The position numbers were made by a program, and so were the translations under genes. A stretch of DNA of 32,028 nucleotides from a virus. Lineage: Duplodnaviria > Heunggongvirae > Uroviricota > Caudoviricetes. Below the pieces are notes generated by a model that worked only from the letters and a program-made list of their open reading frames with translations, was not told where the DNA came from and did no database searches. Positions 11,096-29,774 of this stretch are shown in pieces. Location of the stretch: the IMG/VR virus record IMGVR_UViG_3300008111_001458. One strand, written 5' to 3'. How positions within the stretch are numbered: the stretch's first letter is position 1; the number at the start of each line of letters is the position of its first letter.

Positions 11096-11660
11096 GTCTA
11101 CCAGCAAAGGTGAGCGTGCCTATGATATCTATAGTCGTTTGCTCAAAGAGCGTATTGTCATGCTCAACGGCCCAGTTGAAGACATGATGAGTAATTTAAT
11201 TGTAGCTCAAATATTATTCTTAGAATCGGAAGATCCTAAGAAAGAAATCAATCTTTTTATTAACAGTCCCGGAGGAGTTGTAACAGCAGGCATGGCTATC
11301 TACGATGTTATGCAATTTGTTAAATGCGATATTGCTACCTATGTTATGGGACAGGCCTGTTCAATGGGTAGTTTGTTAGCACAGTCAGGAGCACCGGGTA
11401 AACGTTTTATGTTACCTAATGCTCGTCATATGATTCATCAACCTTCGGGAGGTGCAAGAGGTCAAGCCACTGACATGCAGATTCAAGTTGAAGAAATCTT
11501 AAAGATGAAAAAAGAACTTACTGGAATCTATGTTAAACATAACAGCAAAGGCAAAACATTTGAACAGCTAACAGCTGACATGGAACGTGATAAGTTTATG
11601 TCAGCACAAGAAGCTCTTGACTACGGATTAATTGATAAGATTATTGATAAACGTCCTTAA
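11070..11660 (+). CDS. clpP: ATP-dependent Clp protease proteolytic subunit
   Basis: [30 protein letters not shown] (catalytic Ser), MIHQPSGG (His), [19 protein letters not shown] (Asp); AAGGA RBS supports start 11070. Confidence 0.97.
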
Positions 11661-12834
11661 GAGCAGTTATCAAATTACTCATCATTGAGTCATCATGAAA
11701 CGGAGTAGGTGCGAAACGTAACCGCTCCGTTCCCACATCAACCGTAGGATAGTTAATGGCCTGCACATAAATGTTAAATTCATCTAACAATTTATCACTC
11801 ATTTTTTTAGCACGTTTAGCATCACCAACTAACAACGGAACAATATGAGTAGTAGAGCAGGTCATTAAGGGCAGTTCATTTTCTTTAAACAGTTGTTTGA
11901 GTTTACCAGCTCTTTCTTGATGTTTAACACGAACTTCGTTATGATCCTTAAGCCATTTAACTGCTGCCAGTGCACCTGCACAGGCCACTGGCGACATTGA
12001 AGTTGTAAAGATAAATCCTGCTGCCACTGAACGAATAGCATCAACGACATCAGCATCGGCAGCAATATAACCACCTTGGACTCCAAACGCCTTGCCTAGG
12101 GTTCCATTGATTATATCAATCCTAGACTCTAGTCCGAGTTCTTCTACTTTTCCACCTCCGTGGGTTCCGTAGAGTCCTACCGCATGTACTTCGTCGATGT
12201 AAGTGATAGCATTGTATTTGTCTGCTAGGTCACAAATCTCTTTAATCAGTCCAACGTCGCCATCCATTGAGTAAACTGATTCAAACACAATACAGGGTAT
12301 CTGTCCTGATATGGTTACATTGGCTAACTTATCTTCTAGGTCTTGTAGATCATTGTGTTTGAAAATACTCTTGCTGGCTTTGCTGTGACTAATACCTACA
12401 ATTAAACTGTTATGATTATTAGCATCACTGATAAAATGTATGTTAGGAATAATCTTTGATAATGCTATCAAAGTCCATTCGTTGGCCACATAAGCTGAGC
12501 TGAACAATAACGCTTTACTCTTATTATGCAGCATGGCTAGTTCATGTTCCAAGGCCACATGATAGTGACTGTGTCCGCCAATATTGCGTGTACCTCCTGA
12601 ACCTGCTCCTGTTTGATCTAAGGCTGTGTGCATAGCATCCAGAACTACTTTGTGTTGACCCATACCTAGATAATCGTTTGAGCACCAATTTACTATGGTT
12701 TTGATATTATACGGGCCGTACCAAATTGCTCGTGGAAATTGCCCTCGTTCACGCACAATGTCGTTAAACACACGATATTTGCCCGTGTCCTTGAGATCTA
12801 GGATAAGTTTTTTAAAAGGTTCTTTGTTAATCAT
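11641..12834 (-). CDS. hemA: 5-aminolevulinate synthase (PLP-dependent, Shemin pathway)
   Basis: [48 protein letters not shown] (PLP Lys), [21 protein letters not shown]. The GTRNI motif favours ALAS over BioF/KBL. Confidence 0.92.
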
Positions 12835-12875: not shown

Positions 12876-13127
12876 ATGGATATTGTAAAATTAGACGTGC
12901 CTTTGTTTATAAGGCTTTTAGAACTAGCCCGTGAAGATGTAAAACAAGATGCAGATCTGCATGATATAGCAGAAGCAGTTATTAAACTAAGTCAGGACGG
13001 ACCTGTTACAATGGCAGATTACGATACTATTGTATCCTTTATGAAAGGGCAGGGAGATCCAGCTCCGGAAAAACCTGCAGGATCTTTTGATGAATTAAAC
13101 AGAATTAGAAAACTTGGAGGTCTATAA
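12876..13127 (+). CDS. hypothetical late protein (83 aa)
   Basis: GGAG RBS; TAATG-coupled to the next gene. Confidence 0.7.
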
Positions 13128-13549
13128 TGGCCAATATTACTATTTCTGTTCAGAGTTTTTTAAATTCAGCTAACAATCTAAGTATTACTATTGACGATGG
13201 TCAAACTGTGGCTCAATTAAAAACTGCTGTCAATGCAGCAGAAGGTACCCCAGTAGACATAATGGATTTATTTTTAAGTGGAACAAAATTAACTGACGCC
13301 ACAACACTAGTGGCTAGTGGAATGATTGCAGGATCTTACATAAAGACTTCTAATAATCTAACTCAGACCGGTCTTTGGACCAAACAACAAAGACAGGATT
13401 ACAAATTGCAAATTGCTGCTTTAAGAAGAGCAGCAACTAGTCGTCGTTCAACATACGATATTAATGAATTACCGAATCCATATAACGGAAATGATACAGC
13501 TCCAGATGACGGAGCATCAACGCTGACCCTTGGTCGCCCTTGGAGTTAA
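13127..13549 (+). CDS. ubiquitin-like (beta-grasp) domain protein with C-terminal extension
   Basis: Ungapped manual alignment to ubiquitin residues 22-69 gives 13/48 identities, including EGxPxDxxxLxxxGxxLxDxxTL; no terminal GG. Confidence 0.75.
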   Translation: MANITISVQSFLNSANNLSITIDDGQTVAQLKTAVNAAEGTPVDIMDLFLSGTKLTDATTLVASGMIAGSYIKTSNNLTQTGLWTKQQRQDYKLQIAALRRAATSRRSTYDINELPNPYNGNDTAPDDGASTLTLGRPWS

Positions 13550-13552
13550 TTA

Positions 13553-14905
13553 ATGGGCGTTCGTAATAAAAATTCAACAAACTACGTCCACGCAGACGAG
13601 CCCAATATTTTAAATCTCCATAAGGCTATGGAGTACAATGCTATTGGGCAACCTGTACTACGTGCCAACGTTAACCTAGTAGGCTCAGGCGAAGGTTCTG
13701 GAGTCAGTTCCAGCATAGACAGTAAAGGTCGTCTCAAAGTACAGACACAACAGACTATATTCTTCAACACATTCCAGTATGGTAAAGAAACTGATGTGTG
13801 GGATGAGAGCGCAGTCAACGGAGCCTCCGCAGTATTTGACACTTCATTTAGTCAAATACGCATGGAGGTGACAAATCAACTGGGATCCAAGGTCATACGA
13901 CAAACCCGCAACGTTCAACGTTATACTCCAGGCCGCACACAGAGTGTGGCATTCGCTATTAGGTTAGATACACCAACAACTGGCATCCGTCGTAGGTTTG
14001 GAATGTTTGATGGCACTGATGGATTTTTCTTTGAAGACTGTGGAACTGTTGATCCAGTAACAGGTGAGCCACAGTATGCCTGTGTGATTATCAACAGTGA
14101 TGGTGCTACACCCACAGTGGAAAGAATCTATCGCAAAGACTGGAACGGCGATAAACTAGATGGTAACGGTCCCAGCGGTCTCACAGCAGATCCTCAAGCA
14201 CAGCAGTTAGTCATGATGGATTACGAATGGTATGGTGCTGGACAGGTATCGTTTATGTTTGTGATGAACGGCTTGCCCAGAGTTATACACACCTTTAACC
14301 ACGGTAATAGACTACAGAGTCCTTGGGCGAAAACTCCATTCTTGCCCATCAGACTGGAGATAGAAAATCTCACTGGAGCCGCGGGCACACACTATCTATG
14401 GCAGGGCAGTAATAGTATTCTAGCAGAAGGATCGGTTGAAAAACTAGGCATCGCTGAAAGTATTCTAACACCGTTAACTGGTATCAACATGCCCTTGTCC
14501 AACACATTCTATCCCGTAGTCAGTATTAGAATAAAAAGCACAGCATTAACAGGCATTGTTATACCTACTTACTTCCAAGCAGGCACTGTAGACAACACTG
14601 ACATTTACTTTAAACTTATACGCAATGCCACAGTAAACGGCACGTGGGTGGATCATCCAGATCCCAATGCTTTCACACAGTACAACTATACTTCAACGGG
14701 TGCTATCACAGACGGTGTTGAACTGTCAGCAGGTATCATTACAGCAGGCGGCGGTGCCGCACAGATTAGAGTGGACACCGACACAGTTTATCAAATTGGT
14801 CGAAGTAATTTAGGCACAGTCAGCGATAACTTAACCTTGGCTATCGCTGCCAAGAATGCCAACAAGAATGCTGTGGCCACAATGACTTGGATTGAACAGA
14901 GATGA
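13553..14905 (+). CDS. probable virion structural protein (beta-rich)
   Basis: DSKGRLKV, RYTPGR, RRRFGMFD..DGFFFE, DYEWYGAG motifs resemble structural proteins of T4-like phages (recognised from memory, not searched). Confidence 0.6.
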   Translation: MGVRNKNSTNYVHADEPNILNLHKAMEYNAIGQPVLRANVNLVGSGEGSGVSSSIDSKGRLKVQTQQTIFFNTFQYGKETDVWDESAVNGASAVFDTSFSQIRMEVTNQLGSKVIRQTRNVQRYTPGRTQSVAFAIRLDTPTTGIRRRFGMFDGTDGFFFEDCGTVDPVTGEPQYACVIINSDGATPTVERIYRKDWNGDKLDGNGPSGLTADPQAQQLVMMDYEWYGAGQVSFMFVMNGLPRVIHTFNHGNRLQSPWAKTPFLPIRLEIENLTGAAGTHYLWQGSNSILAEGSVEKLGIAESILTPLTGINMPLSNTFYPVVSIRIKSTALTGIVIPTYFQAGTVDNTDIYFKLIRNATVNGTWVDHPDPNAFTQYNYTSTGAITDGVELSAGIITAGGGAAQIRVDTDTVYQIGRSNLGTVSDNLTLAIAAKNANKNAVATMTWIEQR

Positions 14906-15327
14906 TCTACAGAAAATATATAAACATCGTAGAAGCAGCCAACAAAGGTTGTCCTATTGCTACCTACGACATAGACGTCAACCTAAAGAATCGTCAGAAG
15001 GCCATTGATGATTATCACTACGGCCCTGCTAATCCTGAGGAGCCAGAATCATATTGGAAGGATGCCGCAAAACGATGGGATATTACAGAAAAGACTGCTC
15101 GTACAATGCTGTGCGGTAACTGTGCGGCTTTTGATGTATCAGACAAAATGTGGACATGTATTGAAGATGGTATCAAAGGTGATGAAAAATCTGCAGATGC
15201 TATGGCCACAATCCACAAAGCAGACTTAGGCTACTGCAACTTCCTACACTTCAAATGCGCCGGAGATCGTTCCTGCACAGCGTGGGTCACTGGCGGAGCA
15301 ATAGATGACAAGGATCGTACAGAATGA
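14902..15327 (+). CDS. Cys-rich protein, HiPIP-like Cys pattern
   Basis: 7 Cys: CGNC...GYC-x6-C-x5-CTAW; N-terminal IVE-A motif. Confidence 0.55.
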   Translation: MIYRKYINIVEAANKGCPIATYDIDVNLKNRQKAIDDYHYGPANPEEPESYWKDAAKRWDITEKTARTMLCGNCAAFDVSDKMWTCIEDGIKGDEKSADAMATIHKADLGYCNFLHFKCAGDRSCTAWVTGGAIDDKDRTE

Positions 15328-15716
15328 AAATACAAGATGTAGTTTCTGAAGGCAAGTTTAGATCTAGAGACATCGAGGATTATAAACCCGATAATGAAAA
15401 ACTCAACGATCTAAAAAGCAAATATCTTCCAGACTGGGAAATGTTAGATCATAAAACTCTACAAGCCAAATACGTTGCTAAGGATCACAGACATGCCTTA
15501 TCATTTGTAAAATTCATTAATGGTCTTTCGGAACGTATGGATCATTTTGCAGAAGTTACACAGGATGTTGCAGAAGTCACAGTAAAGACTACTACATTTG
15601 ATGTCAAAGGGTTAACTGTATTAGATTTTAAACTGGCAATGAAAGTTGATCGTTACGCTGAAAAGAATGACATAGAACAAGTGCGTATGCAGGGCAACTT
15701 TGGTATGCATGAATAA
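15324..15716 (+). CDS. pterin-4-alpha-carbinolamine dehydratase (PCD/PhhB)-fold protein, divergent active site
   Basis: LPDW...ALSFV...SERMDHF...VTVKTTTFDVKGLTVLDFKLA..VD matches the PCD pattern, but HHP is DHF and THD is TFD. Confidence 0.75.
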   Translation: MKIQDVVSEGKFRSRDIEDYKPDNEKLNDLKSKYLPDWEMLDHKTLQAKYVAKDHRHALSFVKFINGLSERMDHFAEVTQDVAEVTVKTTTFDVKGLTVLDFKLAMKVDRYAEKNDIEQVRMQGNFGMHE

Positions 15717-20906: not shown

Positions 20907-20935
20907 ATTATATAATCTGTTATTGAGTATGTCAA
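20907..20935 (-). promoter_or_regulatory. consensus sigma70 promoter (leaderless transcript)
   Basis: TTGACA (20935-20930), 17 nt, TATAAT (20912-20907), 6 nt, ATG (20900). Confidence 0.85.
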
Positions 20936-20937
20936 GC

Positions 20938-20945
20938 TATAAATA
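20938..20945 (+). promoter_or_regulatory. T4-type late promoter
   Basis: Exact TATAAATA, 4 nt before the desaturase ATG at 20950. Confidence 0.75.
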
Positions 20946-20949
20946 CTTG

Positions 20950-21654
20950 ATGGAAATTATTATAGCAACGTTAGTGATGACGCACATCACAATAGTGTGC
21001 GTTACACTATATCTACACAGAAGCCAGGCGCATAGAGGATTAGAGTTTCATCCTATAGTCAGTCATTTTATGCGTTTTTGGTTATGGCTCACAACCGGTA
21101 TGACTACAAAACAATGGGTTGCAATACATCGCAAACACCATCAAATTACAGACGTGGAAGGCGATCCGCACAGCCCGCATGTATTTGGAATATGGACCTT
21201 AATGTTTAGTGGTTGGAGTTTATATAATAACGCCGCCAAAGATCCCGAGTTCGTAGTCAAGTACGGAATGGGCACTCCTAACGACTGGATTGAACACAAG
21301 CTTTATACACCTCACCACAAACTTGGTATTCTCTTAATGCTGATCATAGACTTATTGTTATTTGGACCATGGGGATTCTTAGTGTGGGGCGTTCAGATGA
21401 TATGGATTCCATTCTGGGCCGCTGGTTTTATCAACGGTGTTGGTCATTGGTGGGGATATCGTAATGGCGATACAAATGATTACAGTCACAATGTTAGCCC
21501 AATAGGTATTCTTATCGGTGGTGAAGAGCTACACAACAATCATCACTTAGATCCAGCAAATCCTAAACTAAGTCGTAAGTGGTTTGAATTTGACATTGGG
21601 TGGATGTGGTTTAAGATATTTGAGTTTTTGAAATTAGCAAAACTTAGAACATAA
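20950..21654 (+). CDS. membrane fatty acid desaturase (delta-9/DesA-like)
   Basis: Three His boxes: HRSQAH, HRKHH, HNNHH; TM segments; start 20950 fits the late promoter. Confidence 0.93.
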   Translation: MEIIIATLVMTHITIVCVTLYLHRSQAHRGLEFHPIVSHFMRFWLWLTTGMTTKQWVAIHRKHHQITDVEGDPHSPHVFGIWTLMFSGWSLYNNAAKDPEFVVKYGMGTPNDWIEHKLYTPHHKLGILLMLIIDLLLFGPWGFLVWGVQMIWIPFWAAGFINGVGHWWGYRNGDTNDYSHNVSPIGILIGGEELHNNHHLDPANPKLSRKWFEFDIGWMWFKIFEFLKLAKLRT

Positions 21655-28238: not shown

Positions 28239-29774
28239 ATGGCCGTAGTCCAAATAAGCAAAATACAAATCCGTAAAGGAAAAAAGTTACAAACTGGGAT
28301 TCCTCAGTTAAGTGGCGGTGAGTTCGCCTGGGCAGTTGATACACAAGAACTATACATAGGTAATGGTTCCGTGTTCGAAGGAGCTCCTTTAGTTGGTAAT
28401 ACTAAAATTTTAACAGAATACGATAATATTTTAGATCTTGCTAGAGGTTATAAATTTGCTTCCGGAAATCCTAGTATAACTAGAAGTGTATCTCGTTCAA
28501 TACAATCAAAATTAGATGAATATGTAAGTGTGTTTGATTATGGTGCCAAGGGTGATGGCACTACAAATGATACTGTTGCATTTCAAAGAGCATTAGATGA
28601 TCTTTTTTTAAATGCAAATACAAATTTTAAAAAAGCATTATTCATTCCGTCTGGAAATTATCTAATTTCTTCAGAATTACGTATTCCTAGTAGTGCAGTT
28701 ATTATTGGAGACGGCCAGAATAATACAACTCTTCTCATGAATGCTAGTACTGTAACTTTTAAAACTTCTAGTAATTCAACTTTAGGAAATTTCACAGGGT
28801 CTAATAGGCCAGAAAATATTTCTTTATCAAATTTTAAATTTTATTTTACAAGTGGATCTTTAAATTTAACAGGCGTAAAAAATGCAAAGTTTGATAATAT
28901 AATTTTTGAATCAACATATTCATTAGGCAACAGTACTGAAACTTCAATGGTTAACTGGTCTAATGACATTGACAGCACTAAAGTTACTGATATTTTCTTT
29001 TCTAATTGTAAATTTACCAAAGGATATATTGCAGTATCTGCAATATTTTCATCGGTACTAACTACCAGTGTAAATTTTAATAATTGTAATTTTTATATAT
29101 GTGGTAAAGGAATTTATTTACAAGGGCAAGCCAATCAAAGCAATCAGTGGTCAATTCAAAATTCTCAGTTTGAATTAATCTTCAATCAAGCCATACATGT
29201 AACCAACGGTTACAATATGTCTGTGCAAAATAGTAAATTTTTAATTTGTGCAAATGGATTGAATGATGCAGCTACTCCAACTTTACCTGTTATATCATTT
29301 TCTCAAACAAAAAATAACACAGTCATTGATTGTTATTTTGATAGAACACAAGAAGCCGGAGTATCAAATACATCATCTAAACCGGGATGGCCAGAAGTTC
29401 AGAATAGTTCAAAAACTACAATTATTAATAATGTTGTTACTGACATTGCACTGTCTGATGGTCAAAGAACTTTAGCAGTATTTTCTGCGTTTAATAAATT
29501 TATAAAAATTGATTATGTATTAACTTTAGGAACAAGTATTAGAAAAGGTATATTAACTCTAATAGTTGATGGACTCAGTCCTAGTACTATATCGTTAACT
29601 GACGAATTTAATTTTACATCGGGGGTAACAGTCATGACAGGATTTGAATTTGGAACAAACGTATTTGATAATAATTTAGATTCTGGGATTGATACTATTC
29701 AGTTATGGTATAGAAATCCAATTGCCAATCAATCCACTGGCACTATTTCTTATTTCATAACATACGGTGTTTAA
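28239..29774 (+). CDS. virion protein with pectate-lyase-like parallel beta-helix (tailspike/baseplate-type)
   Basis: N-terminal QIRKG...PQLSGGEFAWAVDTQELYIGNG; VSVFDYGAKGDGTTNDTVAFQRA motif; Asn/Ser-rich beta-helix repeats; TAAATA at 28212. Confidence 0.75.
   Translation: MAVVQISKIQIRKGKKLQTGIPQLSGGEFAWAVDTQELYIGNGSVFEGAPLVGNTKILTEYDNILDLARGYKFASGNPSITRSVSRSIQSKLDEYVSVFDYGAKGDGTTNDTVAFQRALDDLFLNANTNFKKALFIPSGNYLISSELRIPSSAVIIGDGQNNTTLLMNASTVTFKTSSNSTLGNFTGSNRPENISLSNFKFYFTSGSLNLTGVKNAKFDNIIFESTYSLGNSTETSMVNWSNDIDSTKVTDIFFSNCKFTKGYIAVSAIFSSVLTTSVNFNNCNFYICGKGIYLQGQANQSNQWSIQNSQFELIFNQAIHVTNGYNMSVQNSKFLICANGLNDAATPTLPVISFSQTKNNTVIDCYFDRTQEAGVSNTSSKPGWPEVQNSSKTTIINNVVTDIALSDGQRTLAVFSAFNKFIKIDYVLTLGTSIRKGILTLIVDGLSPSTISLTDEFNFTSGVTVMTGFEFGTNVFDNNLDSGIDTIQLWYRNPIANQSTGTISYFITYGV

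Follow-up and report, generated by a model that had tools for sequence, protein, structure and literature searches.

To our knowledge, few tailed phages carry a ubiquitin-type (PF00240) domain. The one ubiquitin-like domain (Ubl) of a phage that has been characterized, on lambda gpI, belongs to the ThiS/MoaD type and acts together with a JAB peptidase. The gene described here, of an uncultured phage (IMG/VR record IMGVR_UViG_3300008111_001458), lies at nucleotides 13127 to 13549 on the plus strand of a 32,028-nucleotide stretch of DNA, hereafter the window, and encodes in one open reading frame (ORF) a protein of 140 residues. It consists of a ubiquitin-type domain followed by a conserved helix and tail of approximately 60 residues, hereafter the anchor, and the evidence leans modestly toward a structural role for the protein, as a headless adaptor within a fibre or adhesin module to which the Ubl is added at the N-terminus as a dispensable accessory, in loose analogy to gpI. 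The ubiquitin fold of gpI and the peptidase of gpK were originally predicted (PMC1779556); according to a conference report, gpK uses its JAB domain to remove the N-terminal Ubl of gpI, but not before gpI has been incorporated into the tail tip, and the order of assembly is thereby enforced (PMC12908700). Among host defences, the bacterial ISG15-like (Bil) system attaches an Ubl of its own to the central tail fibre of the phage, according to a preprint (bioRxiv 10.1101/2023.09.04.556158). In the literature searched, no paper was found that describes the anchor motif, or a structural module of a phage that bears a PF00240-type domain.

The N-terminal domain (residues 1-75, 13127..13351, plus strand) matches the Pfam family PF00240 (ubiquitin) over residues 13-71 with an E-value of 1.9e-6 and 28.0 bits, above the curated cut-off of 25.4, and its weaker Pfam matches (Ubiquitin_2, Rad60-SLD and OTU1_UBXL) all belong to the ubiquitin clan. 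Metagenomes contain 182 homologs at 90% clustering, nearly all of 136-150 residues; a profile of 36 family members matches mono-ubiquitin in the PDB (E ~6e-6, 29.6 bits) as well as ISG15 and baculoviral ubiquitin, and PF00240 is detected at E<=1e-3 in 20 of the 97 relatives scanned, the best at 2.8e-13. AlphaFold2, run on the 36-member alignment, models residues 1-103 with predicted local distance difference test (pLDDT) scores above 90 and places strands at residues 3-9, 17-23, 46-50 and 71-76 and a helix at residues 28-39, in beta-beta-alpha-beta-beta order; this predicted arrangement, a mixed sheet (here of four strands) gripping one helix, is that of the beta-grasp. Foldseek aligns the model to ubiquitin, NEDD8, ISG15 and SUMO with probability 1.00, target-normalized template modelling (TM) scores of 0.83-0.92 and root-mean-square deviations (rmsd) of 1.0-1.9 A over 73-79 columns. 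The sequence-only reading that preceded this analysis had proposed a eukaryote-type ubiquitin domain from an ungapped alignment with 13 identities in 48 residues; the count is correct, the aligned stretch starts at residue 27, and both the domain and its beta-grasp fold are borne out by the Pfam score, the PDB profile match, AlphaFold2 and Foldseek. The Pfam, PDB profile and Foldseek results also agree with its placement of the domain nearer to ubiquitin than to ThiS/MoaD, since no ThiS/MoaD family is among the Pfam matches of the protein at E<=1.

Compared with ubiquitin, NEDD8, ISG15 and the viral ubiquitins of PF00240, the domain scores above the family cut-off and its model superposes almost exactly (for ubiquitin and NEDD8, TM ~0.9 and rmsd ~1.1 A), but its sequence identity is only ~20-28%, it is always chained to the anchor, and it lacks the LRLRGG end. 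The C-terminal Gly-Gly is missing as the sequence-only reading had stated, and no Gly-Gly occurs anywhere in the 140 residues, which also separates the protein from the ThiS/MoaD sulfur carriers. The Ubl ends in a strand that leads directly into the linker at N76 and the helix of the anchor in each of the 36 aligned sequences, and the alignment holds no conserved Gly or recognizable cleavage motif at this junction. Within the Ubl, the invariant positions V8, Q9, S10, T27, L31 and K32 align with residues that belong to the fold of ubiquitin (V5, K6, T7, T22, V26 and K27); what is conserved here is the fold and not a modifier end. As the sequence-only reading had noted for the window, no E1, E2 or JAB family was found by Pfam, here among 39 window ORFs, with a few ORFs of at least 90-93 residues and all shorter ones outside the scan; nor were ThiF, Prok-JAB or JAB found in five related viral records, of which three (those behind loci L022, L033 and L037) are complete at ~355 kb. 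The search for UQ_con (E2) ran without a working positive control and is therefore uninformative. PADLOC models of defence systems do not match the protein at E<=1, and NCBIfam and the PHROGs yield nothing significant for it. Because no Gly-Gly, no evident processing site and no E1/E2/JAB partner were found, the Ubl is taken to be an accessory cap and not a conjugatable modifier.

The anchor follows the Ubl in two parts. The first (residues 76-103, 13352..13435, plus strand) consists of a linker beginning at the near-invariant N76 and an amphipathic helix (residues 86-103, pLDDT above 90) in which Q90, K93, L94 and R101 are invariant among the 36 sequences, and which the model packs beside the Ubl at high confidence. 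The second (residues 104-140 and the stop codon, 13436..13549, plus strand) is the tail YDINxLPxxYxGN...L.GRPW[S], in which L115, P116, Y119, L133, R137, P138 and W139 are invariant in the same alignment; modelled alone, it is predicted to be disordered (pLDDT ~50). The C-terminal tail to which the sequence-only reading had drawn attention is thus real, in the form YDINxLP..Y..N....GRPW[S/A/T/V], and shows the strongest conservation within the family. The anchor motif (helix plus LPxxY...GRPW) is without a match in Pfam, PHROG or NCBIfam, and a structure search of a protein atlas with the anchor by itself gave nothing beyond short, unrelated proteins at low TM. C-terminal docking of the HbYX kind through ...RPWS was considered and ruled out, because in many members the Trp is followed by 1-3 further residues or by a whole lectin domain.

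A profile of the anchor, excluding the Ubl, was run against 1.84 billion cluster representatives (50% identity clusters) and matched 404 clusters at E<=1e-3, of which 242 also pass E<=1e-10. The domain architectures of the best 150 of the 404 matches were classified with local hidden Markov models (HMMs). An Ubl of the window type precedes the anchor in 50 of these 150 proteins (29 of them with a C-terminal extension), the anchor stands at the N-terminus, at about residue 7, in 79 (59 of them with a C-terminal extension), and another N-terminal region is present in 21. Homologs of the tail that lack the Ubl, which the sequence-only reading had suggested looking for, are therefore common, and by this profile-based count they outnumber the Ubl-bearing forms among the best-matching representatives. 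Among these 21 are proteins (P0311, P0315, P0325, P0374 and P0380) with a different N-terminal domain of ~85-90 residues that looks like a divergent beta-grasp and was missed by the Ubl HMM; owing to such N-termini, the Ubl-capped share may be higher than counted. In a few others (P0371, P0373, P0386 and P0389), the helix and the LPxxY...GRPW tail stand on either side of an inserted domain of ~100 residues, and therefore the two halves of the anchor are separable submodules.

The relatives without an Ubl start at the anchor itself with M..NGIS.L.TKE.RQ, in which M..NG aligns with N76. One of them (L080) is a protein of 67 residues that is encoded in the cassette described below and is 70% identical to the anchor of an Ubl-bearing relative; another (L089) is a protein of 521 residues with the anchor first and a ConA-like domain last, and its locus has the gene order of the window, namely a divergent aminotransferase gene, a small ORF, the anchor protein and the neighbour protein. 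Because close relatives such as these lack it, the Ubl is dispensable for the cassette, which argues against the Ubl as the active principle (a decoy or inhibitor) and fits an accessory role. To judge from the alignments and architectures, the constant unit of the family is the anchor of ~60 residues, rather than the Ubl or the 140-residue whole. Added domains were sought in 97 anchor proteins with extra sequence, and consist of 33 Laminin_G_3 (ConA-like), 21 PA14/GLEYA and 11 ILEI domains, plus one instance each of Calx-beta, SPRY and a glycine-rich domain (Gly_rich_2); by their family assignments, the added domains are sugar-binding modules that form C-terminal heads. The window protein, with an Ubl and an anchor only, has no such head. 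Several anchor paralogs per genome, as for a dock shared by several fibres, were sought as well, and each of five related records has a single anchor gene.

The Ubl-anchor gene belongs to a cassette of three genes. In the window, the stop codon of the upstream small ORF (83 residues, 12876..13127, plus strand) overlaps the ATG of the Ubl-anchor gene (TAATG), a Shine-Dalgarno sequence GGAGG read from the sequence (13116..13120, plus strand) lies 6 nucleotides ahead of that ATG, the downstream ORF of 450 residues (13553..14905, plus strand) begins 3 nucleotides past the stop codon of the Ubl-anchor gene, and stop/start overlaps continue in the genes beyond it, so that the Ubl-anchor gene is part of a tight, co-directional, translationally coupled string. 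Gene order was examined in 80 IMG/VR loci, 77 of which have at least 300 nucleotides downstream, and in five metagenome loci. The downstream protein is a member of phrog_1645, and a homolog of it starts between -10 and +30 nucleotides from the stop codon of the Ubl-anchor gene in 57 of the 77 IMG/VR loci; the three-gene order is also present in metagenome contigs at 48-63% identity. The next gene in the remaining loci encodes a protein that starts with MGRPLKIAK and has a weak match to a tail-fibre PHROG (here, the gene upstream usually encodes a long fibre-like protein), a fibre-like protein with GNVNIPG repeats, or the large terminase. Searches of 50,697 deposited phage genomes with the protein (tblastn) and with the region (megablast) gave no match to the Ubl-anchor family, and therefore no annotated or cultured relative, and no virion proteomics or structure, covers the family.

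At the position of the upstream small ORF, most related loci have an ORF of 75-125 residues with the motifs R[ML]KQIAGL, YxNxPxE, PKHPxD[IM]R and SMYP; copies are found at L003 5686-6000, L006 5674-5997, L080 3259-3579 and in most of L008-L087, and the family has no match in Pfam, PHROG or NCBIfam. The window ORF is a shortened member of this family that ends at the motif ...ELxR[IM][KR]xLGGL, directly behind the first of the family motifs, and lacks the C-terminal half; its direct similarity to the L006 homolog is weak.

The downstream protein of 450 residues matches phrog_1645, "virion structural protein", with an E-value of 1.3e-130, and its homologs in deposited genomes (162 records, nearly all of T4-like cyanophages) are annotated as virion structural proteins. 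Its N-terminal peptide (residues 1-60, 13553..13732, plus strand), with the motif NSTNYVHxxExNxLNLHKAMEY, is kept in most Ubl-linked homologs and is absent from the Kyanoviridae homologs, which align only from residue 60. The rest of the protein (13733..14905, plus strand) is assigned, by phrog_1645 membership, AlphaFold2 and structure matches, as a ConA/GH16-like jelly roll (residues ~64-296) followed by a second all-beta region. The AlphaFold2 model is all-beta from residue 69 and disordered over residues 1-77, with a pLDDT below 50 for the N-terminal peptide. VIA-align superposes residues 64-296 on GH16 glucanases and lectins (Z 17.8, rmsd 2.4 A, 180 residues) and includes in its list the carbohydrate-binding module of the Dit protein of Lactobacillus phage J-1, while Foldseek matches legume lectins and the receptor-binding domain of gp23 of mycobacteriophage TM4. 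Between two loci (L080 and L032), the first 45 residues of the neighbour protein are ~90% identical and the whole proteins 43%. Receptor-binding proteins of phages usually keep their attachment end while the distal body diverges, and the neighbour protein, with its conserved disordered N-terminus and divergent lectin/GH16-like body, follows this pattern.

At least four alternative N-terminal peptides precede the body of the neighbour protein (NSTNYVHP..., MTYLF..., ...YEVMYLANNANGD... and VPDPEHVKPWYLRN..., in homologs P0124-P0243), which suggests that they are exchangeable virion-attachment ends, and longer homologs have GNVNIPG-type repeats inserted. One gene of the MTYLF type comes after an unrelated protein of 217 residues in place of an anchor protein. 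In the deposited phage genomes that carry homologs of the neighbour protein, neither an Ubl nor an anchor is encoded, and the small genes upstream of these homologs in cyanophages and podoviruses, considered as possible relatives of the Ubl or the anchor, are unrelated. Co-folding of the Ubl-anchor protein with the 450-residue protein at 1:1, each with its own alignment, scored 0.00 and is informative neither way.

The family resembles the modular receptor-binding and decoration proteins of phages (the modules of J-1 Dit; TM4 gp23) in having a short conserved N-terminal module with swappable ConA-like, PA14 or ILEI heads and a neighbour gene for a ConA/GH16-like jelly roll, but differs from them in the ubiquitin-type cap and in a docking motif that is without a match in the family databases. 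The constancy of the docking peptide, the exchangeability of the lectin heads, the single copy per genome and the location before genes of lectin-like or fibre-like proteins together point to an adaptor or adhesin of the particle surface and argue against a soluble effector. In the adaptor proposed here, the anchor would be the docking module, with an amphipathic helix and a tail that is predicted to be unstructured alone; the tail probably becomes folded on contact with some conserved part of the particle, within an assembly that would also contain the lectin-like protein encoded 3 nucleotides downstream. In related phages the C-terminal end of the anchor bears a sugar-binding head (ConA-like, PA14/GLEYA or ILEI), and the window protein is among the roughly one third of the best-matching representatives whose anchor bears the Ubl at its N-terminal end. 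The most likely role of the Ubl is either that of an aid to folding and assembly, which might keep a sticky anchor soluble until docking by analogy to the Ubl of gpI that governs stepwise assembly of the tail tip, or that of a small exposed domain on the appendage. The virion-displayed adaptor encoded beside a structural gene, one of two functions offered by the sequence-only reading, fits the conserved pairing with a virion-type gene and the anchor-lectin fusions of the relatives.

The comparison with lambda gpI (TAPI, PF06805) extends to an N-terminal ubiquitin fold joined to a structural part (PMC1779556, PMC12908700), to a gene located beside those of host specificity, and to an Ubl that is not a free modifier. 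The differences are that the Ubl of gpI is ThiS/MoaD-like with a conserved C-terminal Gly and is cleaved by the JAB domain of gpK (which combines JAB with NlpC/P60), whereas that of the window is of the PF00240 type with no Gly at the junction; that PF06805 is absent from the Pfam matches of the window protein at E<=1; that no JAB was found in the window ORFs scanned or in the complete relatives; and that the Ubl is followed here by a short docking peptide, often lectin-headed, and in lambda by the C-terminal domain of gpI. The likeness is at most a functional one, drawn by analogy, and the Ubl-anchor family lies outside the gpI family.

Several observations weigh against a structural adaptor with an accessory cap. 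The cassette of the window sits among metabolic genes, with no head or tail operon around it. The presence of the protein in the particle is deduced from context only, namely gene context and domain architectures, and the neighbour owes its "virion structural protein" label to the annotation that depositors gave to its cyanophage homologs; such labels in cyanophages generally trace to mass spectrometry of virions (PMC3037559). Subtypes of the anchor show no obvious one-to-one co-variation with the N-terminal types of the neighbour protein, and with no such simple tracking, the docking partner may be another protein. Finally, conservation of the N-terminal Ubl strand (MANITI.VQS.LN) equals that of the anchor, which hints at a specific function beyond that of an accessory cap.

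A first alternative, which appears unlikely, is that the Ubl-anchor protein is an assembly chaperone that is released after its anchor has bound the unfolded N-terminus of the lectin-like neighbour or of another fibre protein, with the Ubl as a solubility domain. The tight coupling of the gene to a downstream structural gene would suit a chaperone, as would the disorder predicted for both the tail of the anchor and the N-terminus of the neighbour when modelled alone, but most anchor proteins bear lectin heads, which are sensible on the surface of a particle and not on a transient chaperone. Fibre chaperones of phages are usually encoded downstream of their clients, a position opposite to that of the Ubl-anchor gene, and in some loci the Ubl-anchor gene comes before the terminase or genes of other proteins.

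It is quite unlikely that the Ubl is a functional device in its own right, either a removable checkpoint of assembly that is cleaved by a protease of a new type (no JAB having been found) or a ubiquitin fold exposed on the particle, where it would forestall or imitate the ubiquitin-like tagging by which host defences of the Bil type target the fibre apparatus. If this were true, it would be the first phage-encoded PF00240-type Ubl in phage-host conflict or in the control of assembly. Very unlikely is a precursor from which a protease of the phage or the host cuts off the Ubl, as gpK cuts gpI, so that the Ubl would serve as a removable checkpoint and only the anchor of ~65 residues would enter the particle. 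For such processing speak the precedent of lambda (PMC12908700) and the relatives without an Ubl, which start exactly past the last Ubl strand at the position of N76; against it stand the absence of Prok-JAB and JAB from the three complete relatives, the junction without a conserved Gly or recognizable cleavage motif, and the model, which holds domain and helix (residues 1-103) together at pLDDT above 90.

Last, the notion of the sequence-only reading that the protein is a non-conjugatable decoy or inhibitor, taken here as a ubiquitin look-alike that would occupy the E1, E2 or deconjugating enzymes of Bil or of the type II cyclic-oligonucleotide-based antiphage signalling system (CBASS) or would shield a fibre protein from tagging, had in its favour a ubiquitin-type domain without Gly-Gly, a fibre-like gene context and the tagging of the central tail fibre by Bil (bioRxiv 10.1101/2023.09.04.556158), but is scarcely credible and has been dropped as tempting but unsupported, given that over half of the tail-bearing proteins classified (79 of the best 150), close relatives in the cassette included, have no Ubl, that the anchor is conserved and the surface of the Ubl is not, its conserved residues being those of the fold with no conjugation end, that the PADLOC models show no similarity, and that fusion to lectin heads would be unexpected for a soluble inhibitor. 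The Ubls of Bil and CBASS share with that of the window a ubiquitin fold in the arena of phage and host, but they are encoded by the host, have a conjugatable Gly end and act with E1, E2 and JAB partners, whereas the window Ubl is phage-encoded and non-conjugatable.

A protein identical to the 140-residue product is present on contigs of up to 260 kb, and the source of the window is a large uncultured phage. The string of genes that includes the cassette is surrounded by metabolic and DNA genes (pterin-4a-carbinolamine dehydratase, a staphylococcal-type nuclease, fatty-acid desaturase, ATP-dependent ligase and ribonucleotide reductase) and a gene for a tailspike-like protein, and epimerase-like and ClpP-like genes were recognized by eye from the translations. 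The late operon in which the sequence-only reading had placed the gene is thus only partly accurate: the gene lies in a tight, co-directional, coupled string with metabolic genes around it, and a late timing is plausible. The dehydratase (15324-15716, E 3.8e-18) and the desaturase (20923-21654, E 3.9e-13) are auxiliary metabolic genes. On the other side of the cassette, a divergently transcribed gene of the aminotransferase class (Aminotran_1_2) occupies 11641-12834 on the minus strand of the window, and keeps its place beside the cassette in related contigs (L003 4460-5659 and L089 448-1656, both on the minus strand). The gene of the lectin-like protein is followed at 14902-15327 by a Cys-rich ORF of 141 residues without a family match; ORFs of 134 residues at the corresponding position (L003 7772-8176, L089 5320-5724) are putative homologs, and the Cys-rich ORF of 134-141 residues may belong to the cassette in the lineage of the window. 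A protein of 511 residues (28239-29774) combines Mtd_N (the N-terminal domain of major tropism determinant) with a pectate-lyase-like beta-helix and has matches to tailspike PHROGs; it is a second candidate for host recognition, ~13 kb (13.3 kb) from the cassette.

In this family, a ubiquitin-type domain caps a docking peptide that is new to the literature searched and that occurs widely among large uncultured phages, most of them from fresh water, with 404 clusters at 50% identity. A definition of the anchor would make it possible to recognize host-recognition proteins in metagenomic phage genomes without cultured relatives, and the Ubl in front of it would provide a second, independent case for asking why ubiquitin folds front the structural proteins of phages.

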